Part shown: positions 127-52,953 of the stretch, in pieces
Layout: each line of letters opens with the position of its first letter
Position numbering within the stretch: position 1 is the stretch's first letter
DNA from: Podarcis pityusensis
Taxonomy: Eukaryota
Assembly: GCA_964106645.2 (NCBI GenBank)
Contig: OZ067043.1
Direction: 5' to 3' (one strand)
Length of the DNA stretch: 64,000 nt
Notes under the pieces: generated by a model
What the model saw: the letters and a program-made list of their open reading frames with translations, nothing else
What the model was told of the DNA's origin: nothing
Databases searched by the model: none
Made by a program: the position numbers and the translations under genes

Positions 127-363
127 ATGATGTGTGAGGTAATGCCTACCATCAGCGAGAGTGACCCCTTGGGGTCACAGCCGGGCTCTGATTCTGATGC
201 CAACTTTGAACAGCTGATGGTGAATATGCTTGATGAGAGAGACAAGCTGCTAGAGACTCTTCGGGAAACACGTGAGACTCTGTCTGTGACTCAGGGCCGG
301 CTACAGGAGACCGTGCATGAGAGAGACCAGCTGCAGAGGCAACTGAACTCTGCTTTACCTCAG
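127..363 (+). CDS. PPFIA4: liprin-alpha-4 coding exon 1 (MMCEVMPTIS...SALPQ)
   Basis: GCCATGATG start, liprin MCEVMPTI N-terminus, donor CAG|GTAAGA. A probable acceptor at 44-45 would put the exon start at 46. Confidence 0.95.
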
Positions 364-1724
364 GTAAGATAAATACACAGATTTTGTGGAAACTAAAAGA
401 TGGCAACAGCAGGAAAAGTCATGGGCATGCCAGGACAGAGGGCATGGCTTTCTTAGTCTAATTTGAGAGGATGCGGCTAAAGTTGGACATGAATGTAATG
501 CATAATGCATTGGTTTCTCATCACTGTAGGCACTTGCCAGGGATGGAGTTTTGAAACCTTTTCTTATTTCCTTCTAAATTAACTGCATAGCTGCTTATAG
601 CGGGTACTATATAATACGGCATTTTCTGCTTTAGCAAGGTGTTGGACTAGGTGATCTTTGAGGCCCCTTCCAGCTCTAATTGCAGCAATCACTTTCTCAG
701 TGTTAATACTTTCTTGTTCGCAATATTTCAATAGCATTGACAACAGTGTCTTTCTGGACTGACTGGTACAACTCTGCAGTGGTTTTGCTCTGACTAGGAG
801 ATAGTGCTAGAAGACCACCAGTTGGCTCCACTGAAATTCATCTTGTTGGATGTAATAAGAGTCCAATCCTGCCTTCTAAGAAATGTAACATCCATATGAA
901 ACTTGTGGGTAAGAACATAAGGGAACCAGAGGTGACATATCAGTGATGCCTAACTCTTTTTATCCTTGTCCTCGGATCCAGGTGTGTCTGGATTCTCTGA
1001 GCTGATGTTTGAAGTTGGTGGTGGGCTAGATGAGGTAGAAAAAGCTTAAGTGTAATTAAGATATGATGGGAGCTGATAATGGATGAGCCAGTCAGCCTAG
1101 GAGCAGGTGGGTTGCCTCTTCTGGAGGGGGTTGCAGTTCCCTGTGAATGAGTAGGTTTACAATTTGGAAGTGCTCAATACAGCAATACAGCTATTTTTCC
1201 AGCTGATCGTTTGCTGGAGAAAAACTAGACATTGCTATACATGCTGTAGTAACTTTATGTATACAGTCATAACTTCATATGTCTATCTATCATGATTGCA
1301 GGCAGTTCCAAGCAGGATTTGTGGGGCTCAGGAATTATAGGCCTAGGTCACAAATGGCCATAACTGCACCCATGTCTGATTACGATGGAGCTTAATCTCT
1401 TCACATGTCCAGGAAGGCTGTTCTGAAAGCTTGTGTAAGGAACATAAAATCTGGTTCTTGGGGAATTGGCCAGCTGCCACATGTAAAATACTACATTTAG
1501 CAACTGAATGTTGGTCTTTTTTGTAGCTATTTATTTAAAACTAGAGACTGCCTCAGTGCCCCAGGCTAAATTCCAAGGAAAAAAACTGTTCAGTCATAAT
1601 TGTTTGCAGTTTTATTTCCAGAGTTGTTCTAATTAATTTCTAACACCTTAACTAGTAGTGTGCCAATAACAGATTTCCTCTGATCTTCATAGTTCTTTTA
1701 ATTCTGGTTCTCATTTCTTCCTAA

Positions 1725-1865
1725 GTCAGCTTGTATAGCTCAGTTGTTTAGAGCGTTATGCTGATAATGCCAAGGTTGCAGGTTCAATCCCTGTTTGGGA
1801 CAGCTGCATAGTCCTGCATTGCAGGGGGTTCGACTAAATGATCCAACTCTACAATTCTGTGATTC
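1725..1865 (+). mobile_element. tRNA(Ile)-like-headed SINE with CR1-type 3' tail
   Basis: A box TAGCTCAGTTG, B box GGTTCAATCC, tRNA-Ile-like GCTGATAATGCCAAGGT, tail CCAACTCTACAATTCTGTGATTC. Confidence 0.85.
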
Positions 1866-1978
1866 CCTCCTGACTCAGCTTTCATGGAATTTGATGCAGC
1901 AGTGTGCTACCTGTTGGATGGGGCATGATGTGTATGTACATGTAGTGAAGGTTACTCTGTAACTAATTAAATGAAGCA

Positions 1979-3857
1979 CAGGTAACTTGCATCTTATGCT
2001 TATTATACTGTACTTGAGTACAGCTTTATGCTGAACACCATTAAATGCATGAGGGGTGGGGAGGCAGAGTGAGGAAAAAATGGCCAGCAATCCGTCAGTC
2101 TTTGGGAGAGTGGTTGAGAGAGTAATTGGAGTGTGGAGAGAGAGTGGAGGAGGTGGTTGAAGAGGTTGAAGAGAGATTGGAGGAGGCCAGAGAGACTTGT
2201 GGAGGAGTTTGGAAAGACATTGGGGTAGGTTGGAGTGTGGAGGAGGTACTTGGAGAGAGTTGCAGACTGCAGAACAGCCCCCAAACACAAGGTATCATTG
2301 TCATCAGCTACTGAGAAACCAAAGAAGCAGAGGGTGGCTCCCATGCTGGAAGAGAAAGTGGTTGTGCTGGACTATTTGAAGGATGGCATGCCTATGTGTG
2401 CTGCGGCATGCAAATATGGACAGAACAAGTCCAGCCCCTGTGCCATCAAGGTGTGTGAGAAGGAGATTTGTGGGGAGATTTGTGGCAGCAAGCACACCAC
2501 TAACTGCAAAGGTGAGGAGCCAAGTGTGGGACAAGGCCTTGGTGAAGATGGAGAAGGCATTGAAGCTGTTGCTGGAAGACATGAACTGTAAATGTGTTCC
2601 TGTGGAGGGCAGCATCTTGCTGCAAAAGGCTCTCAGTCTCTATGACCACTTCAAACCTTCCACCACAGTTGTGGAAAGCCAGCCCAGTTTGGCATAACAG
2701 CTTTAAGATCCACTTCAACCTCATGAATGTCCAAATGACAGGGGAAACTTCATCTGCAGACAAGAGGCTACAAAAACATACCACATGCAACTAAAGATGC
2801 TTGCTGTACAGGTCTCCTTCCTGTGGTTTGGCAATCCAACAAAAAGGCCTGGGTGACTTTTCCATAATTTCTGGACTGGAAGGAACTGAGAGAGTCTCAC
2901 CTGGAATTTAAAGTGATGCTGCTTGTGGATACTGCTTCTGGGTAGCCCAAGCCCCTCTGCTTTGCACATAGTGCCCAATACGACTTCCCTCATCGAGCGT
3001 CTGGATCATGGTGTGATTCACTGCTTCAAGGTTGCTTACATGAAGCTCACCTTCTCTTGGATGATCAATGTGATGGATGCTGGAAGTCCTTCAATATTGC
3101 CCATTGCGTCACCTACATCAAACAGACAGTGAATGCAATCAGGGCTGAAACAGTGAATGCATACAGACAGAACATGTATGTGCATGATTTTGAGGGATTT
3201 CCAAGCATTGCCACTGAGCTTGAGGACATTGTGCAGATGGCCAGGCAAGTGGGTGGTGGTAGCTTTGTTGACCATATTTAGGGGAAAAGCTAATTGGAGG
3301 CCAACAGGTATTGACTGTTGAAGAGCTTGAGGAACTGGTCAGATCAAGTTCAGAATGTGAGGATGAGGATGGTGAGCATGAGACAGCAAGCTGGAAGCTG
3401 CATAACTTCTTATAAACTCTTTCAAGAAACAAAGCATGCAAATGATCTGATTCCAGAGTTTGATGCCTCCATGGAATGCAGCCTCAATATCATCCGTGAC
3501 ATTACAGCACTAGGAGACCATAAAAGGAAATGCCTGACAAACCCAAGAAACAACAGTGGCAGTTGCCAATCACCATGTTCCTGATGAAGAAACTACCAGT
3601 AGCAGCATTAGATGAGCCCACACAATCCACTTGTGGTTCTAAACCACAGTCAAGTACTTTTTCTTGTTCGCACTTAATCCCCCAAAGCATCAATCAGCAA
3701 AGAAGAGGAGGAGGGAAACTAAGAGCTGCATTTGTTCCTCATTGGTAAGTGCAGCAATGTTTTTTGAGGTTTCAAGAGGTTGCTCTGGCTTTACACAATT
3801 TTGCTTATACACTAAATGACCAGGAGCATAACCCTTGTGTAAGATGCGAGTTACCTG
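1979..3857 (+). mobile_element. Tigger/pogo-family DNA transposon fossil with disrupted transposase
   Basis: TIRs CAGGTAACTTGCATCTTA / TAAGATGCGAGTTACCTG, TA at the right flank (CA at the left). Frameshifted HTH (KQRVAPMLEEKVVVLDYL), CENP-B-type HTH (KMEKALKLLLED...ILLQKALSLY) and DDE segment (PNTTSLIERLDHGVIHCFK). Confidence 0.88.
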
Positions 3858-4947
3858 TATTACTACCTTTTACGTGAGGGAGAGCCAAATGTGAAGTTCT
3901 AAGCTAGCACATAGCACTGTAGGATATGAAGAATTTACCATCTTTTTGCAGTATGTTTATAAACAGATTGTCAAAAGCAGTGCTACAAACTCTTCCCAGC
4001 ATGGACTTTGTGTGTGCCCTTAGCACAAGTACCTAAACTCATGAAAGTTTTAATAAACCTTTTTGACACAATAATTGTATTCTGTGCAAATTCATAATTA
4101 GCATTTTTTCTACAGGTACTCTAACATTAATACTGTGATGCTATAGAGTGTTTATTCTCATGAAAATCCATCCCTGATAACTGAGGGGAAGCTGAACAGG
4201 TTTGGTACAGTGTTGTGGCGTGGTAGTACCAGCAGGTGGTGCTGAAATCTAGGGAAGACCCATAGCTGGTGCCCAGGGTAATGTTTTATTTATGCTAGCT
4301 TCCACCCCCCCCCCCCGATTCAGGTGGAATCGGAGGTGTTCATTTACAATGCTGCAGGAACTGCTTAATCATGCCTTTGCCTGTTTATTTTCTCCCAAAC
4401 TGTTCCATTCTGTTATGCGTTTTAATAAGTTAGGTACACGCATAATAACATACTATGTGTGTTCTTCGTTTATAAGAGAACTTGGATGCCTCCAGTCACA
4501 ATTCCAAGTATGAGCATTGTATCTTATCAACATCATTCATTGCTTCTTTTGTGCATTCTTTTCAAACCCAAACATTTATTCCTTGCTCACACCATTTACA
4601 GTTGATTCATATTATATCAAGGGCATTAAATACAGATTTACACTTGGAAGACAGTTTATATAGGGAAAAGATACAGTGTTTATACTTGGAAGCTTGACAG
4701 AAGGCATTCAAGTTCTCTTTCAAAGGAACAACATACATACATATGACAATATTTGTCATAGGGAAAAATATGTGTAATAGAGTTCCATGGTGTGGTTAAT
4801 GCCTCTGTCTTAAAGATGGCCTCCCTGGATCAAGAGGTCTTAGAAAATTACTGTCCCCTCTCTAGTATTCCTTTCCTGAGCAAGGTGATTGAGATGGTGG
4901 TGGCAAGCCAGCTGCAGGTACACCTAAAGGAAGCAGATTATCTAAAC

Positions 4948-5216
4948 CAGGGGTTGGCAACCTAAGGCCCATGGGCCACAAGCAGCCCACGGGGGTTGTT
5001 TTACCAGTTCACGAGCTGCCCCTGAACCAAGCCGCCCGCTCAACGAGTCCCCGCGCATTGCACTAAACCGGCACAGTGCAGTGCCACAAATCGCATTGAC
5101 AAGACGCTGGAAAACACGTCTGCGCAGATGCTGGAAATTGTGGGCGTGGGTGCTCATGTGCACCCATGATCCGGACCATGGAGGGATGAGGCCAGAGAAA
5201 ATAGTTTGCTCAATCC
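4948..5216. mobile_element. probable hAT-type non-autonomous element
   Basis: Starts CAGGGGTTGGCAACCT, CpG-rich interior, degenerate right end. Confidence 0.5.
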
Positions 5217-6432
5217 AGCTTCACACGGTACTTAAAAGGTAAGAGAAGACAGAAAGCCCTGTCCTTAATACCTTGTTTTATGATAAATCTTGCAGACTTC
5301 TAGGCTGCGGAAATACTCCAATAATGGGTAACTATTGTGCTATTACATCATCTAGCACAGTAATTTTCGATGTTTACTGTAACAGCCTAGGAAAAGGCAT
5401 ACCTTACCCAACCAAAGATGCTGTGGGTGGAACACATTTTTTATGCTGACAAAGTCCCACTCAGTTTATACTCGATTGAGGGTCCCTGTCGGCAGCTGTC
5501 GGTGGCTGTCAGTGGAGGAGGAGGAACAAGCAGCCTGAAAGCAGCCCTTTTGGGCTGCTCCTTCCTCCTCCTCCTCCACCTTTGCCGCTGTCGGCAGTGG
5601 AGGAAGACTGTATTCTGTCAAACAGGTGGAGGTTGTGAAATTCACCTCAGAGAGGCAGATCTTGCACAGAGCAGGTCTCTGGGGCCATGGCCTTTTCATT
5701 GCCTACCCCATTAGCTGGTAGTTGAAATCCGGGCACCATAATGGGTGTCTCCCATATATTTATTATTTAAACTTCAGTGCTTAGAAGACTTCAAAGGGGA
5801 TATATTTGGTCTACTTCCCATGTTACTCCTCCTGGAGCTGAATCTAGAAGTCATTCATACAAAATCAGAAAGTGGAATTTTTTTTGCAAGTATTTGAGTC
5901 ATACAATGGTGTACTAAGCTGCTCCTGAATTCTGGGCACACCACTATCTGTCTCTCAATGAGATGTGAGTAAGTATTCTACCCTTCCCCACACACATTAT
6001 AATTTTACTCAAAGGATGCATAAAATCCAAGCCAAAGTTTGACATTGGCTTGAATCAAAAGTAATCCATATACCTAGGTTTATTTATGTTTGTTTATTTC
6101 ACAGCTAGATTGCAATAAAACCTCCAAGTGGTTTACAGTAAGAATTATCAGTAAAGAAAATAGTTAAAAACAACTATTTAAAACATTAAAAAAAATTAAA
6201 TTCAATTACGGTATATGCTTAAAAGCCAGGTTAAAGTGCATGTCAACATTTTACATATTGGATAGGTTTGCCTAAACGAAAATGTTTTTAGCAGGCACCA
6301 AAAAGAGTGCAGTGAAGGTTCCTTGCCACTAGGAACAGCTGCAGTTTTAAAGCATTACAAAGATTTTGCACAAAGTCCAGCATTAACTGACGTGGACTTT
6401 TATTGTCTAAAGCAAGTGCAGACAATGTGATA

Positions 6433-6549
6433 CCCTCCTGAAGTTGTTCAACTAGAATTCCCATCAGTCCCAGTCAGCATGGCCAGTGGTGAGGGTTGAT
6501 GAGTGTTGTAGTCCATCAACATCTGGAGAGCATTGTGTTTGGCTACCTG
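6433..6549. mobile_element. palindromic MITE (CCCTCC...CCCATCA...TGATGGGAGTTGTAGTCC...CATCTGGAGGG family)
   Basis: Imperfect hairpin. Related copies at ~14215-14460, ~36770-36880, ~39040-39320 and ~41935-42038. Confidence 0.6.
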
Positions 6550-6680
6550 TGGTCTTAGCATTCTTACTGAAGAAAATTGGTAGGCATGACACTGTAGCAC
6601 TTGGCAGCTTCCAGGCAGGAGGATAATAAGCCAATCCTAAATGTAGTTGTCACTGTCTCCTTGTTTCATGCAGATGATTG

Positions 6681-6683
<3 letters not shown>

Positions 6684-6723
<40 letters not shown>
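6684..6723. repeat. (GT)n microsatellite
   Basis: pure GT run, ~20 units. Confidence 0.97.
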
Positions 6724-6725
<2 letters not shown>

Positions 6726-7099
6726 TGGGGATGGTTGAGTTTACCTTCAGTGAAATGCAGACAAGATTATTTGAAAACAGTGTGAGTGGCTGTTACTAAT
6801 ATTGTGTGTCCAAGGCTCTGAGTCTCATGTGCATATCTCTCAGAACAGAAGAGAGCCCAGGGTTGGGATTAACCTTGGCAGCCATGTTCTGAGGTGATTA
6901 TTTAGCAGGTCAACCATGAACCCCAAACTGAGATGCTAGGCCCTGCAGCATCCTCAGAGGCTAGCAAAGGGTATGACAGCTCACTTTCTGGCTTGTAGTG
7001 AGAAGGGGGAGGACCTGTATTTTTAGAAGGGGGAAAGAAACTAAAATATTTCTTGCATTATAGTACTACCAACCCCAGGGTACTTCACATTCAGCTGAG

Positions 7100-8029
7100 C
7101 AGCGACAGCAGTCTGCAAGAGCTTGGCAAGGGAGGGAGAGCTAAGCACTCAGCCAGACAGGCTGCTTACAAGCCCAGTATGAGCACCTTCTGGCCTTGAC
7201 ACATTTTGGTCTTTCTGCTTCCTCACTGAGCTGAGTGACCTTCTGCCCTTGGCAAATTTCCAGTTGGGTCAGCCAGATCCAATAAATTCCAAGCTGGTCA
7301 AAAGGTACCATGGCCCTAAATGGGCTCTGCCGTAGCTGATTTTCAGGCACACGCCCCTTTGTGGCCTCACATGCTCAGTGCCCACGTCTTGGATTGAGAG
7401 CCACAGCTCTGGTGTCTGCACTCATCCATGTTGAGCAGCTGGGCAGAGAGCATGCCAGGTCAGCCAAGGGAGGGTTACGCCTCTCGGGCTCTGCAGCCGC
7501 TTGGATTAAGGGGCTATGCGGATTTACTCTCTGCTCTTGCTTCAATTCCTCTCCCTCCGACGTTCTGTATAGGGAACATGCAAGCAATGCAGAGCAAACT
7601 AGGTCATTGCAAAGGGACTTTGTGCATCTGTGAGATCCTCTGGGGGAGGCTGCTGGCTCTCCCGGCTCCCAGCTTCTGCTTGTAGCATTTTTGCCTCCCT
7701 TACCAAGTCGCACTGCTGCCTCCCCTGGATCTTGAAAAGGGATGTGATTAGCACAGGCAGCAGATGGGGAATTTCCGTGAGCTCCAAATGGCTCCTCTTG
7801 ACAAGGGCTTCGCTGACACTATTCCAGTGCCCAGTTCTCCTCCTCCTCCCGGACAGACAGATTCTGCAAGAAGCAACTTCCTGCTGGTTTGAACCTCAGG
7901 CACCAGGGTCTGCAGCAGGACATGGAACTTAGGCTGCCTCTACCCTTCATCTCTGGATTTAGTTGCTGTTCTCCCCTCGGCCTGGCAGAGCCATGGATTT
8001 ACAGATCAAGCTGGCTATGATTCCCCAGC
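7100..8029 (+). promoter_or_regulatory. candidate internal promoter / 5'UTR of the alternative first exon
   Basis: GC-richer segment with no repeat that I recognise and some retained CpGs. Contains CCAAT (~7279), a CACACGCCCC KLF/SP-like box (~7348), CAGCTG and GGATTA motifs, directly upstream of the candidate exon. Confidence 0.45.
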
Positions 8030-8101
8030 ATGAATACAGGGAACAAATCCATAACCAGCCATCTGTCCAATGGCATTAATTTCAGCATGTACATGTATCA
8101 G
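8030..8101 (+). CDS. PPFIA4: putative alternative first coding exon (MNTGNKSITSHLSNGINFSMYMYQ), in frame with exon 2
   Basis: ATG to a strong phase-0 donor CAG|GTAAGC, 72 nt. Resembles an alternative PPFIA2 N-terminus recalled from memory. Confidence 0.7.
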
Positions 8102-8362
8102 GTAAGCAGGATACCCCTTGCAGTGTCTGCCCACCATAGCTTTTCACCTTTTCTTGGTAGATGGAAATACTCCAGGCTCTTAAAGCAAGTGTTGAGGCCT
8201 GTCCAAACCTCCACAAGCAGCTGCTTTTCTTCTAGTTCTACTTCTTTCAGGAGTTGTGTTGGCTATAGGCATGAACTTCTGTTCATATTTGTTTCTGTTA
8301 AGAAATGGAGTATCAGTGCCATAGGCTACTCCAAATGTCTTGAGGGGTAGAGGGGGAAAGAG

Positions 8363-8507
8363 CAGTTTTTTCCCCTTTAAAAATGTTTAGGGGTACTCTC
8401 ACTTTCCTATTCATATAGAAATACTGCTCCTCAATAAGGCCAAACTTAGATTCACAAAATGTTTAGGGGTATGTGTCCCCCCATGTCCCCCCAGAAAAGA
8501 AGCACTG
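8363..8507. mobile_element. hAT-type MITE
   Basis: Perfect 8-bp TSD GGAAAGAG on both sides, termini CAGT...ACTG. Confidence 0.8.
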
Positions 8508-9524
8508 GGAAAGAGTATTGGGCACAGTTAGTGCTGTCAGGTGATTCCCCTGACAGATAAGACAAAGAATATTTCCTAGAGAGTTGCGTGGAGCAGAGAT
8601 TTCCTACCAAGCTGAACCCTTATATGAAAAGTTCATTGAGTACAAACAAAAGAGCAGTTGACCTTTGGGAGCTTCTGATTTATAGTGATCTGTTTACCGT
8701 AACATGCTTGAACAACAGAGACCTGCAGGTTTGGAACTTAGAAGTGGGAAACGCCTAAGTATGAACATATAGCCTGTTGGTTTTCCCCTGCTGTTTGAAG
8801 CTACTTTGTGAGCTGCCCACTGTACATCATGGTAAAATGGCTAGTTCTTTGCTCTATTTTGAAGGGTCCATGCGAACTAAGGTCATACTTTCAAAGGGCT
8901 GAAGTTTTTCCTTCCTGGTGGACCATAGGTGATTTACCTTTTTGGGAACTAATTGCCATAGCCCCAAAGGCACTTCCCCAAGCACACTATGAGGGCTGAG
9001 AAATTCCCAGGGAGTCTATAGTCACCAGACTCCTAGAATTTTGATTGGTAGCACCATGGAACTGGACAAAACACATGGCATGCATGTGGGACTGATACCT
9101 AAAAATTCACGCCTATCAAAAAATGTGTGAAATTTTGTTTTCCACCCTCAAACCTGCCTACTCCTTCCTTTCATTTCTGTCTTTATGTATGCATACCTCT
9201 CAGGCAGCCTGTGAACAGACAATACATTTTCCTTCAGGAGCACGACCAGTGTTGCTGCTGCAACGTATTTGTATTTATTTTCCTGTGACCACCCTGGGCA
9301 TCTATTGGATATGCCCAAGAGAAATAATAAAGTCTCTTTACCTGCTCTATATGCTTGACTAGTTTTGGAATTAGGCTGTGATTAGCATCATGGATTGTAC
9401 CTGGCAGTCTCATTTTTATTCTCCCCTGATATCTCTCAGAAAGGTGACTGCATAATGGTCTACCTTACATCTTGTCATTTTCTAGCCCGACCTAGCGGCT
9501 TTCCCCCTGACAGTGGGATTGTAG

Positions 9525-9775
9525 GATTGTAGGAAAAACCAATCTTTTAAAAGGGAATTAGACCAATTCATTTACAATAAAGCTACTAGTCATAGCGGCT
9601 ACAAGCAGCCTTCACAGAGCCAGCAGACATCTGAATACCAGTTGCTGGGGACTAACCATGGAAAAGAACTATTGCCCTTATGTCCTGCTTGTGGTCTTCC
9701 CCTGAGTATCTGGCTGCATAATGTGGGAAGCACAATGCTGGACTAGATAGGCCTTTGGTCTGATCCATCAGGAGA
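9525..9775 (+). mobile_element. old CR1-like LINE 3' fragment
   Basis: AAAAGGGAATTAGACCAATTCAT ... GCTGGACTAGATAGGCCTTTGGTCTGATCCA resembles the end of CR1 ORF2 and its 3'UTR. Confidence 0.5.
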
Positions 9776-10844
9776 TGGGTTCCTTAAGTCCAATACTGAT
9801 TCATTTGGACATTCTTTTTTCTTCTTTAAAATTCTCCTATGTGCACACTGGACTAATTATTATCTGTGATGCAGTTAATAACACTGATTGCTTCTGTATC
9901 TGTTTTGATCCACTATGCCTGGCACAAACAGTTATTCCAATTAGATGCCAAAAATGTGACTTACATCCTAAATGGACCCAATTCATTCTTTGAACTCTGA
10001 GGCAAATCAGTAGGGAAAAGAAGAATTGTCCTTGTATCTGAAAAAAATGTTCCACATTCTCAGTCATTGCTGTGTTTGGCTTTTCCGATATTAAGAAAAT
10101 CACTTTACATAATTGATATGCTCTTAACATTTAAAATCACAAGTTCTTTTGTTTTTGCTCAAACAGTTGAGGTGTGACAGATACCCCTTAGGGTAGCCTG
10201 TGCCATATCCACTTGGGCTTTAAAATTAAACTTGATACCTTCAGCTACACCGGGAAGCAAACGAGAAGCAAGTATAGGTTTTAAATCTCTGATATAAAAT
10301 GCGTCCAAAAATTCATTGCTTTCGAATACTTGAACAATCACATTTGGTGTCTTCTGACGTTTCTCAGTAGTCTTAAGTTTTTAAGAGTTCTTAATTGAGC
10401 CAAGATTAGGCATCCGTGTTTCACTTTCTAATCCATTTATAGGTGTCCCTGCCTAATCTGGAAAGCTTATGGCTATGCAATTTACCATCCAAGGGTTGAG
10501 AGAAAAGGTCTGGTAAGGTCTAATCTAAAATGTCTGTTGGAAAAAGTATAAGCTTATAAGGGATTTCAGTAACTTGAGGATGAAGGACTTGTTAAACTTG
10601 TCCACAAGACAACCATCTTCTAACGTGGTTCCAAAGTGACTAGGCAGCATAGGACTGAAAGGTAGTATTTAGCTTAACATTAGAATTAGAATAAATCTCC
10701 CAAATCTTCATCTAATTGAATGAAAGCTCATGCCATAATAAACCAGTTAATCTCTAAAAGCTGCAGCCTTTTTGTTTTCTTGTTTCTGTGCTAGGCGATT
10801 AGAACATCCTGCCTGAGGATACTGTAGAGACATTCTTCCTCAGT

Positions 10845-12350
10845 GGGATCATTCCATATCAAGTGATCCAACTTTTAAATCTCATGTCATCTAATTTTCT
10901 TAATATTTTGTACATTTGTTGAATGATCAAATCTAAGTTAAAATCTAAAATTTTAATTTTTTATCTCATCCTGTTTTTGAGTTATGAAGGTTTGAAATTT
11001 CAGAAATTTGACAATTTTGGCCTTCCCAGACCTACACAAAAACCTTAAAAGTTTAGCCCAAGATTGAGATATTTCAAGACCTAAAAAACGAATCTTTCAG
11101 AACTTCATGAGCCTAAATATATGTCATATGATGAACTCACTCTAAAATTTAAATTTAAGTTACAAAATTTTAAAGTGATGAAAAAAATTAATATGATTTT
11201 AAAATTCCAAAAAACTTGTACAGTACTGATCATTTAATATTTCTAAGAGCTACCTGCAGAATTTCATCCTGGGATCTCAATGGGATCACGTTACAAAAAA
11301 TAAAATAAAAAATTGTTAATACACGTCTGCCTTATTGGGTTCTATTTAGGATAAATGGGTCTTCTCAAAGAAATATATAACAGAATAAACAAGGCCACAA
11401 CCATAATATTAGTTGCTTCAGGCATTTCATCATAAAGTTATTTAATTAAAAAGTGTCTGAAAAGCTAGTCAGGCTTTTCTTTTAAAAATGTGTTCCAAAG
11501 CTGAGTGATAGCTTGCTATTGCATGATAGAATTAACACTTTGAAAGAATTATTGTTAGTAGTTTATTTCATGAAGCACAACAAAATACATATCAAGCAAA
11601 ATTATGACACAGCTGGAACTGTTTAACTGGTGCTGAGATAACATCTCTTCTATCCAGTTCTTATTTTCAACAAATGAGGAGTACAGAAAAGAAGAAATGT
11701 TCCTGAAAGACGCTTTGAAAGAGTGAAAGTGATCAGGGGAACACAAGGATTTCATTGCTACATTTCATCCAACAGAAATTGTGACCAATGTGTACTCCTT
11801 TAGCAATGAGAGTGAGAAGTTTGACAGTGAAGGAGGTATAAAATCTCTGGATATGACTGAGATAACTGGGTATGTGACCTGTGAATACAATAAAACACGT
11901 TGCTTAACTTAGATGCTGTTGGTGGACTATGAAAGTGAAGAAGCAACTGTGACCTCCTTACACCTGCCAGGGCCAGCATCATCATTTGTTTACCCATCTA
12001 GTCAGGATGTACTTTAGGTAGGGCGAGCACAAGTTCCAACAAGCGTTGAACCAAGGACTGCAACTGGCCGCACTCACACTTTGACAAAAAATGAACGTGC
12101 AACCAATGCTCTTGAAAAGTGTTTGGTGTAAAGTATAAATAATGTTTTCAGCCCCATTTAATATGTAAGAGTCCCTCCCTCTAATTTTGTTTGATATGCA
12201 TTTTGTTGTAGCTCTTATAAACATTAATTAATACATTTTTAAAAATTATATTAATTTTAAAAATCGCCTTCTAAATTTTTAAATTTTGTAACTTACATTT
12301 TATATTTTGAGTAATTCCACCATGTGACAAATCATATTAAGGTCCTAATT
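10845..12350 (+). mobile_element. AT-rich DNA transposon fossil, Sola2-like, with C-terminal transposase remnant at ~11598-12131
   Basis: Left end GGGATCATTCCA. Long inverted repeat ~11110-11210 vs ~12235-12345. Broken peptide ...ELFNWC*DNISSIQF...RFERVKVIRGTQGFHCYI...GYVTCEY...LHLPGPASSFVYP...PRTATGRTHTL. Confidence 0.65.
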
Positions 12351-12641
12351 CAACGCTTTAACCACTTTAAGCACATAGCTCATTTTCAGGCATGAAGGCA
12401 ATCAGTAGCAAGCAACATTCCTATAGGTGGCGGTGCAGTCTCTTGAACCTAAAGATAAATGCAACTGAATTTAAGGAAATGCTTATTTAACTTAAAAAAA
12501 CAAAGTTATTAGCCAAAAAGTAAAGTACAAGTCAGATGCTCTACATGCACTAGTGTCTGATCACAGGGTTGATGATTAGGGCAATTTTCATTTTGGCTAC
12601 AGGAAATTTTTCATGAACAACTCTTTGACGGTTTAAACATA

Positions 12642-12928
12642 CAGTGGTGCCCCGCAAGACGAATGCCTCGCAAGACGAAAAACTCGCTAGACGAAAGAGT
12701 TTTCCGTTTTTTGAGTCGTTCCACAAGACGAATTTCCCTATGGGCTTGCTTCGCAAGATGAAACGTCTTGCGAGTTTGTTTCCTTTTTCTTAAAGCCGCT
12801 AAGCCGTTAATAGCCGCTAAGCCGTTAATAGCCGCTAAGCCGCTAATAGCCGTGCTTCGCAAGACGAAAAAACCGCAAGACGAAGAGACTCGCGGACTGG
12901 ATTAATTTCGTCTTGCGAGGCACCACTG
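12642..12928. mobile_element. Tc1/mariner-superfamily (Tigger-like) MITE, young
   Basis: TA TSD, TIR CAGTGGTGCC(C/T)CGCAAGACGAA, intact CpGs, internal 18-bp tandem GCCGCTAAGCCGTTAATA x~3. Confidence 0.92.
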
Positions 12929-14241
12929 TACAAGTTGCACAGTCTCTCTGTTGCCATGCAAGGCCCAGAGAAAGAGTTTGAAGTAAAATTTGTCACTTGC
13001 CTTAATCCCTTTGTATATACATCCTTACCAAATTTGGACTTCAGAAAAAAGGTGTGAAAACATTTTTCTTTCTTTCTCCTCTTCCCCCTCCCAGTTCACA
13101 AGGAGACTTCACATTCCCAGAAATTAAGATGATACAAGATGGGATATTGATCAGTTAGGGGACATGTTTGTCTGTTAGACTAAATCTTAAAAGCAAGCAT
13201 GCAACATTCCATCACACTTAGGGTAAAGAAACAGAAACCAGGATATGGTTATGCAGGAAGGAGTATGGTTTATATACAGTATGTGTGGTGTCACTAGGGA
13301 GGAAATGTAAAGCACTGCATTTGAGTGGGGAGGGAAGATTAGAGCACCAACACATTGCTGGAGAAGAGAAGGGATTCAAGGGAATAGTTGGGGTAGTGTT
13401 CAGGGGAGAAAGCCAAGGGTGGTGGTGGGAGTGCCAGAGAGATGCAACAAAAGGGCAGGGGATAAAGAGAATGAGAACCAGGATGTATTGGATGGGCATA
13501 AAGAAGAGAGTCCTGGTAAGAGTTCTAGGTTGTGTTGAGGACAGGATAGAGCTGAGTTGAAGGGATGGGGAGAATGATGGAGGATGCAGCTAAAATCTCT
13601 CCCTTCCCCCCATGACATTTCACAGTCATTTGCTAGCTGGCAAAACACAGGGCATTTTTAATTTAGATCCATAACATCACAGATCTAGCTCCATCAACAA
13701 CTATTCTAGGGATGTTTCTGCAGTTGCCATTATATGCAATCAAGAAAAGAGACTTAGCATTTCAAAAGGATTCTAAAATGTCTCAAAATACCTGCTACTC
13801 CTAGATTTGTCAAGACTTGGATGCAAGCTTTTCCTGTGCCATGGATTCCTCAAGATGGCATTGGGAAAACAGTTACAGGGACATGAGAAGAGCCTTACAG
13901 AATCAGAACAAAGGCCTGCTAGTCCTTTAATGCTGTATATGGTTTAGGATGCAGATATTTGAAGTATTACAAGGTGAAGTTTACTAAATGGCATTGAACA
14001 GAAGTGTTAGTGGTAAAGAATGTATAGTTCATTGCCATCACCATTGCAAGGTACCTTTACATAGGTTTGTGGTTGGTCAGATTTGTCATGGGTTTTTCTC
14101 CGTTTGTGTTCATATTGTCTTCCCAACTGACTCATCACTACCAGCTAGTGAGATGACGTGTGTGAGTAACCATGTCTTCAGCATGAGATACTCCAGATTT
14201 TAAAGATCCACTACAGGAGCCTTCTTCCCAATGTTCTAGAT

Positions 14242-14353
14242 CAGGCATGTACAACAGGTCGATCGCAACTCTGGGCAATGACACTGGGTAGATCACTGTC
14301 AGTTTTTTTATACTGGGAGTAGATCGCAGTCTCTTGGGAGTTGGATATGCCTG
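14242..14353. mobile_element. 112-bp hAT MITE nested in a palindromic MITE
   Basis: Perfect TSD TTCTAGAT, TIR CAGGCATGTACAAC / GTTGGATATGCCTG. Confidence 0.88.
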
Positions 14354-14670
14354 TTCTAGATAACAATTCATATCATTCCTGACCATTGGTTGCTCTGGCC
14401 GGGGCTGTTTAGAGTTGGAGTCCAACAACAGCTGGAGGGCACCAGGTTGGGAAAGGCTGCTTTCACAGAACTTCCAGCCATGTTAGCTAGTAAGTCCTCC
14501 AGAGTTATCAGAAAATGATCAAGATCCATCAAAATCCAGTGTTTTATTTATCAATACCTTGATGGGAAACCACTGGAAATGTAATGAAAGCTGTTTGGGC
14601 AGCAGTTCACTTGTTTAAGAAATGCACATGAATAACATTGGAGAAGGGGCTGAAAATGTACCCTGCTTCT

Positions 14671-15049
14671 CAGTGGCATGCGGTGAACTCTTTTCATAGG
14701 GGACAGTTAGGGCCAGAAGCACCAGTATGTGAGGCCGATTCAGGGGGTCAATGTCCTGATGTGTGGGCATCACACCTTCCTCCTTAATCTGGGCAGAAGC
14801 TTCCTGGGCTTTGGAAAGGAAGCACCAGGCCTCTGACAGGATGCTGGAGCCCTGCTGCCTCATTCCCAAAGCTGGACAGGCTTTGAGAAGGTGGCTGGAG
14901 GGCCCTGCACCTCATCCGAGAATCACACCTCCCTCCCTAAGCTGGGCAGAAGCTTCCTGGACTTTGGGAAGGAGGCACTAGGCTTTAATAGTCTAATATA
15001 CCAAGAACATTTAGCCTAGTCCCCCTAGTCCATTGACCACACACCACTG
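14671..15049. mobile_element. hAT non-autonomous element with an internal ~60-bp direct repeat
   Basis: Perfect TSD CTGCTTCT, TIR CAGTGGCATGCGGTGAA / TTGACCACACACCACTG. Confidence 0.85.
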
Positions 15050-17029
15050 CTGCTTCTACTGACCCAGCGTTGAGAAGCAAGTCTGCTCCTGTATCTAGCC
15101 CAGTGCCTTCGTTTATATAGTTTCTTTCTGGATTCTGTTTCTTGGTCACTCTAAACATCTGCTGGAATGTTGTGAATTGGATTTTCTGCATATGCAGATG
15201 ATGAAATCTGAGACTAATTTCTACTCTTGAAAGTCAGGAATATTAAAATTAACATGAAGCTTATTGGATCCTTTCCGATTAACTTGTCTGAATCCTTTTA
15301 CAGACTGCCACATCTAATATGCATGTATTCAAGCTAGGCCTCTAGTGTCTCAGTGAAAAATCAACATGCACACAGGAATTTTTCTCCTACTACTACAGTA
15401 TCTTAATTTGTATGCCAAACTACAAAGCAGTGATAATTCAGGATGACTGCATAAATGCTGTTCTCTTGTTTGCATTCTGAAGCTCAGGAAACATAGCGAC
15501 AGGCCCACTCGGTTCCCTTCAAGCTATTTCAAATGCTTCATCAAGTGGGTGGGTGGGCTCCCGGCACAGTTCTTATTTTGGTTGCCTGTTTTGAACTCTA
15601 CTTGGTTCAGCCTTGCCCTTTCAGAAGTAATCCCTGCAGCTGTTAGAATTTACCAATTGGAATTTACTTTTGTAAGACCTCCAGTTTAGAGAAGGGACAA
15701 TGAGGAAGGGCTGGCTGGCTGGGAAGTGTCTGCTGTTATTTTAATTTCCCTAGCCGCCTGCCTTAACTACCTGCTTTGTTGTGCATATCTTTGTGTTGCC
15801 AGGGAGGTTCTACACCCCTAGCACAGACATAATCACTGCAGCTTCTGTAACAAATGAGTCCATGTATGTCCCTGTTGTTATAAAAAGCAAAACAGTAGTT
15901 ATTGAATACTGTTGTGGGAAACATACTTCAGGCTCATTGTGAAGATTGCATTGACGGGCACCTTTGACGTTGCTCTCTGGCTGAGACAACAATACTTTGA
16001 CTTACTTCCGTTTTTTTAGATGTGTAGCCTGCCTCATACCAAATGCTCAGGGCAAATAACAGTATTTGTGTTTTAAATAGTTCAGATATTGTTACTTGCT
16101 AGAATTATTTCTACAAGGCATTGGGTATAGCAGAAAAAGTGAAGAAAATCTATTGAACACAGTGGTAGACAAGTGATAACCTGCCTCACTGCCCTACTTC
16201 ATCCTGTCTTAGGGTATTTTGAGACAGGTTTAGCCTTTCATTGGTTCTAATTAATGCAAGGCTCATTGGTGTGTGACCCACACCAGTTCCTTAGGGATGC
16301 TGCATGGAGTATGTGTGTATCAGAAGTATCAATAATCTATAAAGAAACATTGACTAAGAAATTATCTGATGCTGAATGCATAGATCTTTAGAGGGCCAAG
16401 ATAAACAAGGAATTCTCCTTTACACAAACACCTTCATGACTGAGATAGTTTGTATTAAAACTATTTTACCCTACCTAAAGACCCCCCCAAGCTTACGACT
16501 CTTGGAAGCTGAAATTATTTCAGGAAAAGTCCAAAATGGAAGCAAAAGCTAATCTGAAAGGAAACAGTAAGAAGTGCCTGCAAATTTCTTTGTTGTGTTT
16601 AGTTTTATGATGTCTGAGTTCCACTGCTAAAAAAGTAGATGCCCACATTGCTTATTTTTAAAGAGGGTATTCTGAATTTTGCTGGATGTGGGAGAAAAAC
16701 AAAACAAAAAACTGTATATCTGCACTACTGTGATTCACATATGGCAGCAGCTGGCATGTAAGTCTCAAGCTGTTTTCTGTCCAGAAGATACACTTGATTG
16801 CTGGCATGTTGCACTGCCTTAACTGATTGGAATGAAATGCTTTACCTGCTGTTTCTACTTTCTTTAATTGGTACCAAGGGGAGTAGGTGAGAATCTCTTA
16901 CCCAGGGGAGAACTTCTGGTGGAACCAGTACTGCCTTATTAGAATGCATTGGGGTGGCAGTTTTGATATTGGCTTTGCAGATACATAAGCTGGCTGGGTG
17001 ACAGATTAGTCTGAATATCATTTATTATA

Positions 17030-17256
17030 CAGTGGTACCTTGGGTTACAAAGGCTTTGGGTTACAAACCCTTCGGGTTACAAACTCCACTAACCTGGAAG
17101 TAGTACCTCGGGTTGCAAACTTTGCCCCAGGATGAGAACGGAAATCGTGTGGCAGCAGGAGGCCCCATTAGCGAAAGCGCGCCTCAGGTTAAAAATGGTT
17201 TTGGGTTAAGAACGGACCTCCGGAATGAATTAAGTTTGTAACCCGAGGTACCACTG
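17030..17256. mobile_element. Tigger-like MITE (CAGTGGTACCTCGGGTTAC family)
   Basis: TA TSD and TIRs. Same family as 22277-22537. Confidence 0.92.
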
Positions 17257-17576
17257 TATTTCAAAGTACTGTAATTCACTAAACAGAACCTTTGCTTACC
17301 TTTGAAGTGTCACAAAAACCCACCAAGGAGTCCCAGAATGAAAAGTTGTAATACTTTTCTGTTGTTGTTAATTCTGATGGTTGTTTTGATGACTTTCATC
17401 CTCTTTTGTGTGACAGCCCATTTTTGGTAATACAAGTGGATCCTCTTGGGTGCATGTGATGCAACCATGTTTTTTCATGCAGATGCTTCTTTTTCTTCAT
17501 AAAAAAGCTAACTTAAAGCTGGGGAATCTGAGGAAACCTGGCTCCGCATGATTGTAAAAATGTGATTGCTTTGCAG

Positions 17577-17678
17577 GAATTTGCAACACTGACTAGGGAA
17601 CTCAATGCATGCCGAGAGCAGCTGTTGGAAAGGGAAGAGGAAATATCTGAACTGAAAGCAGAGCGTAATAATACAAGG
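17577..17678 (+). CDS. PPFIA4: coding exon 2 (EFATLTRE...NNTR)
   Basis: ttgcag| ... AGG|gtgagt, 102 nt. Confidence 0.96.
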
Positions 17679-19288: not shown

Positions 19289-19588
<300 letters not shown>

Positions 19589-20245
19589 TAGCTTCAGCAA
19601 AACCAGCTATTTATAACCCACGACCTTTAAGTTCCTGGTCTCTAATGGCCCAAAGTATTGCTTTTGGTCAGTGCTATCCTGCAGATCTCTCATCAACTTT
19701 CTGGTTATGAGTAATTTCCAGCCTGAGCCAATCATTTGCCCTTTGAAGAATGGTCCCAAAAATTACTGTTTTGTATCCTAGAAATATGTTAGCAGGATTG
19801 AATCTGTGCCAGTGCTCCTTTGAAGGAGTATTCCGGCCTTCCACTCTCCCAACCCCAGTTCAGCTCTACACCCAGTGATATTGTTATATGGTGTTAGTGT
19901 AGTAGCTCTTCCAGGTCAGGCAGATCTCTGCTGAGATCCTTTTACGTTTATTCTAATTGGCAGGTTAACTCAAGATTCCAGGCTTTAGCCCGCTTCATCA
20001 TACCTAGTGTTTCTTGTTGCTTGCAAATCTAGCTGAGATGCCGGGCTTCTGGAGCCATGTACTGTTCTTTTGTGTCCTTTCTCATGATGAGGGGAGTGTG
20101 GCTTAATTGAATTATCTGTGTTATGAACTAGATTTCCTGATGGTTGGGAGCAGGGGTGGTGGTGGTAGGCTACGAAGCTGCCTGAAGCATCCCTAAGGGC
20201 TATGTGTCAACTCTGCCTTTGAAAATATATATATTTTCCTTTCAG

Positions 20246-20320
20246 GTGAGAGAGCGCTTACGGGCAGCACTGGAACGAGTAGCTACACTAGAAGAACAGC
20301 TTTCTAGTGCTCACCAACAG
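20246..20320 (+). CDS. PPFIA4: coding exon 4 (VRERLRAALERVATLEEQLSSAHQQ)
   Basis: ttcag| ... CAG|gtaaat, 75 nt. Confidence 0.95.
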
Positions 20321-21233
20321 GTAAATATTGGGTTTTAGATTGTACTGTGGATTTCACTGAGGTTAAATCAAAGAAACTAAGACTGTTGATTGCAGAAAAA
20401 AATGTATCTGCAGCACTATGTGACATGCAATCTTTATATTTTTGTTTCAGTTGTTGGACTTGTGACACAAACTCCTGTATATTTCTCTTATTTTCTTTAG
20501 ACAAGAATCCCTTTTTAAATACTCCTCTAAAGCTATTTTATACTGATCTAAGGAATTTTGGTAACAACCAAGGTAAACTTGAAGCTATTGTTATGAGAGA
20601 TAATTAAAATAATTGTGGAAAGCTACCCAGGCTACATGGGGTTTCATAAATGGAAAAAAACAAAAAATGTACAGGAAGGGAGAGGAAGGACCAGTTGCTA
20701 AGAAGCACACATTGCAGCAGCAAACTTATGTCAAGAGAATATTGCAAAGGGAGAGAAAAAACCAGAATAATTGCGGTAATGTGACTAGGTAGCAAAAAGA
20801 AAAAAATATGTTACAAAATTAAAGGTGAAAGGAAGATACAGGATACACCCCTGCATGTCACAGACCTGATCAGCTCATACCTCACGGCTTCTACTTGAAA
20901 AACAATAATTGGACACATTAAATGTATTCATGCTTTTACAATATTGTGTGGTTGGGCCCTTACTTTCCAGGCTGGTCTTACACAAAAAGAAGTCAAATTA
21001 CCTGTTAAAGTGCCAGTTACCTATGCTCCCACACTAAGTTATTGAATCACTTTGCATAGTAAAAATCCTGGCTTTTACAGAACTCTCCTTCATAAGCGTG
21101 TGCAATGACAGCTTCTTAACAGTGACAGCAACAATAGAAGGTGGACAAGAAGCTCTCTGCATGTTCTGCATTCTTATTTTTCACACTTAAGGAAACCTTA
21201 AGTACAAGTGTATATTTAAAATGTATTTTGCAG

Positions 21234-21335
21234 GTAAGTGCTCTTCAGCAAGGCCCCTCCCAGAGGGAAGCACCTGTAGGAGAAGATGATAAAAGGACTG
21301 AGGGAAAAGAATCTGGGCAGAAGCTACTTTGGAAG
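21234..21335 (+). CDS. PPFIA4: coding exon 5 (VSALQQG...KLLWK)
   Basis: ttgcag| ... AAG|gtgaga, 102 nt. Matches the recalled human VSALQQG...RLWK. Confidence 0.9.
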
Positions 21336-21739
21336 GTGAGAGTCATCTTTCTTGGAAGTGGAGAGTATCTAATATAATATTGAAGTACTATGTGTTTACA
21401 GCTGTGGGTCATTCAATCGAAGGTACAAAATGGGAACCCTTTGCTTACTGATAAATTTTATCTTCCCTTACTATTTTTAAACTCTGCAATAATAGGCCTG
21501 TTGAATAAATGTCCAGTGGCACGTTACAGCTACCTCAAAATGCCTCCTTTTCAGAAAAGACCAGTGTTACAGTAGCAATCTAGCATCTCTTGCATACTGT
21601 TAGAAAGAAGAAAAACTGATAGTTCATTTGGTGAGCTAATTTATTGAAATGTCGCTCAGCGGCATTTGTTTGGTATTGTGCTTGACTGGGTAGTTCATAT
21701 TCCTTGGAAACATAGTTCTTTGTTATATGACTTTCACAG

Positions 21740-21961
21740 AGACTTCCTAATGGCTCTATACATCCAGATGATGAGGCAAGCCGGACTGTGGAACTGCAGG
21801 AACTTCTAGAGAAGCAAAACTTTGAGGTAGCGCAAGCTAAAGAACGAATAGCTGCTTTGGCTGCCAGTGTTGCTGAGCTAGAAGAAGATCTAAGTACAGC
21901 CAGGAGGGACCTAATCAAATCAGAAGAAATGAGCGGCAAGTACCAGAGGGACCTAAGAGAG
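21740..21961 (+). CDS. PPFIA4: coding exon 6 (RLPNGSIH...QRDLRE)
   Basis: tcacag| ... GAG|gtgaga, 222 nt. Confidence 0.92.
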
Positions 21962-22276
21962 GTGAGAGAGTTCTGTTCCAGCAGCATAAACTATGTTACC
22001 GAGAGAATCTCTGAAGCAACTTTAAAAGCCATCTTATTTTTTCCAGGTGTAGCAAAAATAAAATAGTCTGAGCATCTGCTTGCAGAAAGTTATTGCTGTT
22101 TCTAGCAGTGAGCTTAGTTATTCAGTGTCAAAGTAAGAAAAAATTGATCATAACAAGAGATTTGCAACCCTGCCTCCTCTCAGTTTGCCCAGATAAATAA
22201 TTGGGCTTTCAGAGTTCTAGTAGAATACTTTGGGGTGGGGTGGGGACACCAGTTTTTCAGGTGTTCCCTGTGAGTA

Positions 22277-22537
22277 CAGTGGTACCTCGGGTTACATACG
22301 CTTCAGGTTACAGACTCTGCTAACCCAGAAATAATACCTCGAGTTAAGAACTTTGCTTCAGGATGAGAACAGAAATCGTGCGGCGGCGGCAGCGGCGCAG
22401 CAGCAGCAGCAGCAGCAGCAGGAGGCCCCATTAGCTAAAGTGGTGCTTCAGGTTAAGAACAGTTTCAGGTTAAGAACAGTTTCAGGTTAAGAAAGGACCT
22501 CCGGAACGAATTAAGTATGTAACCAGAGGTACCACTG
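22277..22537. mobile_element. Tigger-like MITE with internal (GCA)n
   Basis: TA TSD, TIR CAGTGGTACCTC(G/T)GGTTACATAC. Confidence 0.92.
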
Positions 22538-23063
22538 TACTCTAAAAGTACAGTTACCATTTTCCTGCCACTTTCCCTTCCCTGCCAGCTCTCTACTTCA
22601 TCAAGCCAAAAACCCTGGGGAAGAGAAAGACATGACAGTGAGAGGGTTCTCAACAACACAGGAAAGGCCTTGTGGCTGCAAATGGTGCATAGAGCATTAT
22701 TTCTTGCAATCATGAGGTTTGACTGTGGTGGGAGCCTCCACCACCATTTGCCTTGTCTTGTCCCTCAAGTTATGGTTGTTTTGAGGGGCAAAGATGGATG
22801 AGGCTGTTGGGCAGGGCTGGAGAGTGGTGGAGGCAAGTGTGAGCCCAACTTTCATTTGGAATCAGCTTAAATGGTTCCAATACAACCTTTCAAAATGGGG
22901 CCAGCTTATTAATGCGGAGAGAGTTTGCATTTTGAGCTTCAGTGTAGTACCTCAATAGGCATAACAAGCCCTTCTCATGCTGTGGTTCAGGCATATTTTT
23001 CTATCATCATGAGGGCCATACAACCACAAAGTTCGTGACTTTCTTCATGGCTCATCCTACCAG

Positions 23064-40200: not shown

Positions 40201-40236
40201 CCCAGTGACTTGAGGAAACACAGGAGGAAGCTACTT
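40201..40236 (+). CDS. PPFIA4: coding exon 16, 36 nt (PSDLRKHRRKLL)
   Basis: ttcgcag| ... CTT|gtgagt, symmetric phase 0. Confidence 0.93.
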
Positions 40237-52926: not shown

Positions 52927-52953
52927 GACACTGAGGAGGGCAGTTGGGCACAG
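52927..52953 (+). CDS. PPFIA4: coding exon 23, 27-nt microexon (DTEEGSWAQ)
   Basis: atttag|GACACTGAGGAGGGCAGTTGGGCACAG|gtgaga. Matches the recalled liprin-alpha DSEEGSWAQ insert. Confidence 0.93.

Follow-up and report, generated by a model that had tools for sequence, protein, structure and literature searches.

Coding exons 4 and 5 of PPFIA4 (liprin-alpha-4) in Podarcis pityusensis both start with bases that rebuild a 5′ splice site once the exon is joined to its predecessor. The best explanation, to which we give a probability of about 0.8, is that both are ordinary coding exons whose donor-like starts follow from the encoded residues and from neutral choice among codons and are probably silenced by the exon junction complex (EJC). 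They would be two putative recursive-splicing exons (RS-exons), likely silent, and new members of a large known class. The direct observations behind this reading are the motifs themselves, the joins running from exon 3 through 4 and 5 to 6, the lack of conservation of the exon 5 motif, and the freedom of codon choice at the Val-Arg start of exon 4.

The locus and its rebuilt donors

The window, the whole 64,000-nt stretch of P. pityusensis DNA that was analysed, contains the PPFIA4 gene on the + strand with 27 coding exons. Exon numbers here are those of coding exons, and the mapping covers translated exons. The exon chain (127-56946) gives 1156 residues, with four differences from model P0002; exon 6 is 100% identical to that of Podarcis muralis liprin-alpha-4, from which there is no difference of kind at the protein level. 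The features around the two exons are as follows.

19397..19561, + strand: coding exon 3, 165 nt, phase 0-0, ending ...KALDEK with AAG|gtaagg (from sequence and contig joints)
19562..20245, + strand: intron 3, 684 nt, GT..AG, a 684-nt gap in 7/7 assemblies
20246..20320, + strand: coding exon 4, putative RS-exon, 75 nt, phase 0-0, second half of helix H3 of CC1
20246..20251, + strand: GTGAGA at the exon 4 start, rebuilding AAG|GTGAGA after the 3-4 splice, 6.5/9, codons Val-Arg
20318..20326, + strand: native donor of exon 4, CAG|GTAAAT, 8/9, above its rebuilt competitor
20321..21233, + strand: intron 4, 913 nt
21234..21335, + strand: coding exon 5, putative RS-exon, 102 nt, phase 0-0, the end of the H3 construct and then poorly conserved linker
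21234..21239, + strand: GTAAGT at the exon 5 start, rebuilding CAG|GTAAGT after the 4-5 splice, 9/9, codons Val-Ser
21333..21341, + strand: native donor of exon 5, AAG|GTGAGA, 6.5/9
21336..21739, + strand: intron 5, 404 nt, shorter than intron 4
21740..21961, + strand: coding exon 6, 222 nt, start of the Pfam PF25526 match and the acceptor for any re-splice

The motifs reported in an earlier note on this sequence are exact, by the sequence and by spliced contigs: exon 4 starts GTGAGA and exon 5 starts GTAAGT, and the rebuilt 9-mers are AAG|GTGAGA (3/4), CAG|GTAAGT (4/5) and AAG|GTAAGT (3/5). Donor scores are counts of matches to the donor consensus out of 9, a crude measure. By this count the rebuilt donor of exon 5 does beat the exon's own donor (9/9 against 6.5/9). 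In exon 4 the native donor scores above the rebuilt one (8/9 against 6.5/9), and the competitive arrangement is found in exon 5 only. Exons 5 and 12 of PPFIA4 both have AAG|GTGAGA as their native donor, so this 9-mer does function as a donor here. Both exons are phase-0 symmetric, as had been noted, at 75 and 102 nt; all ten exons 2-11 are phase 0-0, hence this is nothing special.

The sequence definition of a putative RS-exon fits both exons. The human threshold given in PMC6224609 is a MaxEntScan score of 5.52, the level passed by 90% of real donors. By proxy both rebuilt sites lie above such a level, CAG|GTAAGT being the full consensus and AAG|GTGAGA being native elsewhere, and each exon is a real exon spliced to the preceding one (joints 3-4 and 4-5 in 7/7 assemblies).

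The class is large. According to Blazquez 2018 (PMC6224609), 3.6% of human exons (6,837) are putative RS-exons, 93.8% of these are constitutive, 21.7% of genes have them, and their share is similar in the deuterostomes examined there. GT[AG]AG is rebuilt at 2/26 PPFIA4 junctions, and 3/26 exon starts have GT. At the human rate of 3.6% the probability of two or more among 26 is 0.24, while an adjacent pair within PPFIA4 has a probability of 0.03; given Val-Arg and Val-Ser and the codon use of the gene, both starts would be GT[AG]AG with probability 0.087. Were exons independent of one another, a set the size of the human one would contain some 250 adjacent pairs by chance (55-456 across the thresholds of PMC6224609). 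The motif pair exceeds chance expectation only mildly. As it stands it matters little, with about one-fifth of human genes holding a putative RS-exon and adjacent pairs expected in hundreds.

Transcripts, gene models and conservation

Seven of 18 RNA-like runs were chosen for alignment, from six studies with four organism labels, all as assembled contigs. We treat them as transcripts because they show spliced GT..AG joints. The joints 3-4, 4-5 and 5-6, with GT..AG ends, occur in 7/7 assemblies, and a single unbroken contig crosses exons 3-6 in 5/7. The skip joints 3-5, 4-6 and 3-6, which the earlier note had proposed to look for, are absent among the joints listed for the seven contig assemblies, the joint table being complete for four runs and short of one weakly supported row for X1, X3 and X10. 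Contigs drop rare variants and give no inclusion levels, so this excludes only a major skipped isoform; among the major forms of the seven assemblies there is no skipped isoform of the kind that marks a physiologically alternative RS-exon in normal tissue.

In run X3, two contigs with depth < 3 extend from exon 4 into intron 4 (20295-20667), which would be unspliced or retained intron 4, or DNA. Cover of intron 5 in run X2 was set aside when it failed to recur on repeat alignment; short matches of other contigs explain such cover. The exon 5 pieces of runs X18 and X4 carry two differences and one, at positions unlisted.

Searches for alpha-4 gave 163 proteins for examination, 20 without anchors and 143 anchored. 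Both exons are present in 129 of the anchored models, 10 are aberrant, three have no exon 5 (Podarcis muralis P0001, gecko P0007 and fish P0278) and one has neither exon (bird P0042); exon 4 alone is missing in 0/143. A query made of the 4-6 junction had two near-exact matches out of 33, P0001 and P0007, both automated models. We rejected P0001, P0007, P0278 and P0042 as evidence of skipping and read them as annotation gaps. P0001, coming from P. muralis itself, speaks for the proposal of the earlier note, but further variable exons are missing from this model too and parts of it run into introns. Models without exon 5 are discounted more generally because the alpha-2 models P0143 and P0198 drop the matching exon, which starts with ATT and is unable to re-splice.

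The start of exon 5 varies. Its first residues in the 129 alpha-4 models are VA in 78 (birds), VN in 16 (mostly snakes), VS in 10, IN in 10, IS in eight and VT in seven. An exon with an Ile start (18/129; geckos, Anolis, Pogona) cannot begin with GT, and Val-Ala or Val-Thr cannot give GTNAG, so the motif is not conserved; the expected conservation of the GTA AGT codons fails with the residues themselves. Orthologue DNA was compared for close relatives, and farther orthologues were compared at the protein level. In the three paralogues of this genome exon 5 opens with ATTCTA (alpha-2), TTAATG and TCTCTT, none of them donor-like; the latter two we take to be alpha-1 and alpha-3. The two-exon pattern is therefore limited to some alpha-4 genes.

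Exon 4 is a different case. Its junction, Lys|Val-Arg, is invariant, with an intron at the same position in 14/39 animal loci, and its GT is there because the invariant Val after the junction forces it. The 22 animal loci with Val-Arg between them use every codon available for Val (four) and for Arg (six), and GT[AG]AG occurs in 4/22. The exon 4 starts of the four paralogues in this genome are GTAAGG (alpha-1), GTAAGG (alpha-2), GTGAGA (alpha-4) and GTTCGA (alpha-3), giving GT[AG]AG in 3/4, at a chance of ~0.32 each and with shared ancestry. A selected recursive site should be conserved beyond protein constraint; neither exon shows this in the sequences compared, the residues differing at exon 5 and the motif being limited at exon 4 to 4/22 outgroup loci and 3/4 paralogues. 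Free variation among relatives, which the earlier note named beside a lack of skipping after EJC depletion as what would count against its proposal, is what these comparisons gave. An apparent avoidance of GT[AG]AG where the Lys|Val intron is present (0/13 distinct against 4/8, Fisher p 0.012) was rejected, because four of the eight look like cDNA, leaving 1/4, and the loci are related and too few.

The two exons had been described as linker between the coiled coils. That holds for most of exon 5, which starts at the end of the H3 construct and is mostly linker, variable in length and sequence. It does not hold for exon 4, which lies wholly inside the match to PDB 7D2E (query residues 2-58, E 5e-24). 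In PMC8044993 this structure is the H3 segment of CC1 of liprin-alpha-2, and H2 and H3 switch between an H23 dimer and tetramers. Exon 4 makes up half of helix H3, so its loss would cut a conserved assembly helix and not a linker.

Silencing and the case for re-splicing

If the two exons are ordinary and silent, as we favour, the EJC deposited upstream of each new junction would block the spliceosome on the rebuilt donor, and the native donor would be used. The analogy is with human experiments, in which the EJC blocks the rebuilt donor after splicing (PMC6224609). Exon 4 would be further protected by a native donor that matches better than the rebuilt one. At exon 5 the short downstream intron may go first, and the rebuilt site may then never meet an acceptor; intron 5 (404 nt) is less than half the length of intron 4 (913 nt).

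The same source gives skipping up in 26.8% of RS-exons on eIF4A3 knockdown. It also describes EJC-sensitive RS-exons as tending to lose their upstream intron before the downstream one and to combine a weaker donor with a stronger acceptor (PMC6224609). Exon 5 fits this trend in its weak donor and goes against it in its acceptor (10/18 pyrimidines, second lowest of 26) and its longer upstream intron; exon 4, with its strong native donor, goes against it. By our estimate, skipping of exon 5 on EJC depletion would have somewhat less than an even chance, and skipping of exon 4 would be rather unlikely. Either would be a failure mode and not an evolved switch. Counting against the silent reading are the models that lack exon 5 or both exons, the GT[AG]AG start of exon 4 in three of four paralogues, and the perfect rebuilt donor of exon 5, which outranks the native one, an arrangement that favours re-splicing in reporters (PMC6224609).

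This perfect rebuilt donor is also the starting point for the alternative that survives best, in which lacertids have a single leaky RS-exon, exon 5, whose partial escape from the EJC gives a minor in-frame isoform without 34 linker residues. A rebuilt site of 9/9 over a native 6.5, a frame that is kept and a variable region all suit it, as does the 4-6 join in the P. muralis model P0001, and incomplete repression leads to physiological skipping of several human RS-exons (PMC6224609). However, the seven assemblies have no 4-6 joint among those listed, P0001 is short of further exons of low conservation as well and runs on into introns, P0143 and P0198 lose PPFIA2 exon 5 with an ATT start that is incapable of re-splicing, and a weak acceptor and a shorter downstream intron oppose upstream-first splicing. 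We judge a leaky exon 5 unlikely.

Another alternative holds that selection maintains a latent donor at the Lys|Val-Arg junction throughout the vertebrate liprin-alpha family, one that PPFIA2 uses and that is only a vestige in PPFIA4. The GTAAGG starts of alpha-1 and alpha-2 exon 4, beside GTGAGA in alpha-4, speak for it, and gene models of alpha-2 add to this. Of 187 alpha-2 proteins from our searches 18 had no anchors, and in 9/169 anchored models, from seven species, exactly exon 4 is missing: Thamnophis elegans, Pseudonaja textilis, Vipera latastei, Varanus komodoensis, Rhynchonycteris naso, Saccopteryx leptura and S. bilineata. The exon in this genome is the following.

G000:C10:41632209-41632283 (L011:210-284): PPFIA2 exon 4, starting GTAAGG and rebuilding AAG|GTAAGG

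Here the rebuilt AAG|GTAAGG and the native GAG|GTAAAT have equal counts (7 and 7), and the exon lies between introns of 3.2 kb before and 12.0 kb after; its loss removes half of helix H3. From its sequence, PPFIA2 exon 4 fits re-splicing better than anything in alpha-4 and is the best candidate in the family for physiological re-splicing. It is also the more testable lead, and existing annotation across amniotes includes an isoform that skips it. Against a selected donor throughout the family stand the GTTCGA of alpha-3, the chance of ~0.32 for each start together with the common ancestry of the paralogues, the presence of the exon in all lacertid alpha-2 models (0/42 without it), and the fact that ordinary cassette skipping gives the same product, the skipping species having been compared as protein models. 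We consider such a donor quite improbable.

A broader form would make the ancient Lys|Val-Arg junction a vertebrate recursive switch, by which the exon for half of H3 is removed from PPFIA2 in snakes, monitors and bats; lacertid PPFIA4 would have gained a further site, a perfect one, so that low EJC deletes one or both exons in frame. This is decidedly improbable; if true, EJC dosage would tune the assembly of the active-zone scaffold, with H3-H2 pairing setting the oligomer state.

The regulated cascade put forward in the earlier note, with exons 4 and 5 serially re-spliced out under EJC control and the protein between the coiled coils thereby tuned, has in its favour that each junction (3/4, 4/5, 3/5) rebuilds a donor and that all products are in frame, yet it needs both exons to be EJC-sensitive, in order, and we hold it to be very improbable indeed given no 3-5 or 3-6 joint among those listed for seven assemblies, no anchored alpha-4 model of 143 without exon 4 alone and only one without both, a pair that is absent from all three paralogues and impossible in orthologues whose unconserved exon 5 starts with Ile, an exon 4 that is part of helix H3, and, in PMC12758388, human EJC-dependent multi-exon skipping with hardly any enrichment of recursive sites (5.2% against 2.9%). 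The same study gives 16.1% for EJC-dependent single exons, and its authors assign exon blocks a different mechanism. Were the cascade true, it would be a serial re-splicing of coding exons, none of which we found described for liprin genes, and would make the assembly of the presynaptic scaffold depend on EJC dosage.

Related systems and other observations at the locus and in the family

The preferred reading of the two exons as silent places them closest to the RS-exons of Blazquez (PMC6224609), exons annotated as coding that recreate, with their first bases, a donor at the junction upstream; exons 4 and 5 are included like 93.8% of that class. Unlike those, they are two adjacent exons (the word 'consecutive' is absent from the text of PMC6224609), and their EJC sensitivity is only putative. 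For the EJC-dependent exon blocks of Bergfort 2026 (PMC12758388) the likeness is that joint loss of two neighbours would give the same 3-6 product; in those blocks, however, the introns on either side are long and leave later than the internal one, and recursive sites show hardly any enrichment. In PPFIA4 the internal intron is the longest of the three, at 913 nt against 684 and 404 nt. Some very long introns contain cryptic RS-exons and ratchet points (Sibley 2015 and Duff 2015, as reported in PMC6224609). These share the AG|GT juxtaposition, and CAG|GTAAGT at 21231-21239 resembles a ratchet point, but here the exons are conserved coding exons retained in the mRNA between introns of less than 1 kb (684, 913 and 404 nt).

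Literature searches linking PPFIA2 or PPFIA4 with recursive splicing, or liprin with the exon junction complex and exon skipping, found nothing relevant in the library searched. The cell lines of the studies that we searched for PPFIA names may not express these neuronal genes. For that reason it is a weak negative that no such name occurs in the text or five supplementary files of PMC6224609, nor in four supplements of PMC10156609.

Some further features of the window and of the family were observed on the way. The first coding intron of PPFIA4 (363-17577) is 17.2 kb, and every later intron is below 4.7 kb. Two short in-frame exons, at 40201-40236 (36 nt) and 52927-52953 (27 nt), are both absent from model P0001 and are candidates for neural alternative exons; a microexon paper names PPFIA4 once.

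In the probable PPFIA1 gene (G000:C1:58708000-58729000; L014, L016, L017), exons 2-4 appear twice, 10,953 bases apart. The copies share 99.7% identity along 9 kb and are separated by a gap of 200 N; the repeat probably arose by false duplication at this scaffold gap.

A short element occurs in two copies in the window, at 17027-17259 and 22272-22542, with terminal inverted repeats of 25-28 nt that include TA at each end. It is presumably a non-autonomous transposon of Tc1/mariner type. The copy at 22272-22542 lies under very deep contig cover.
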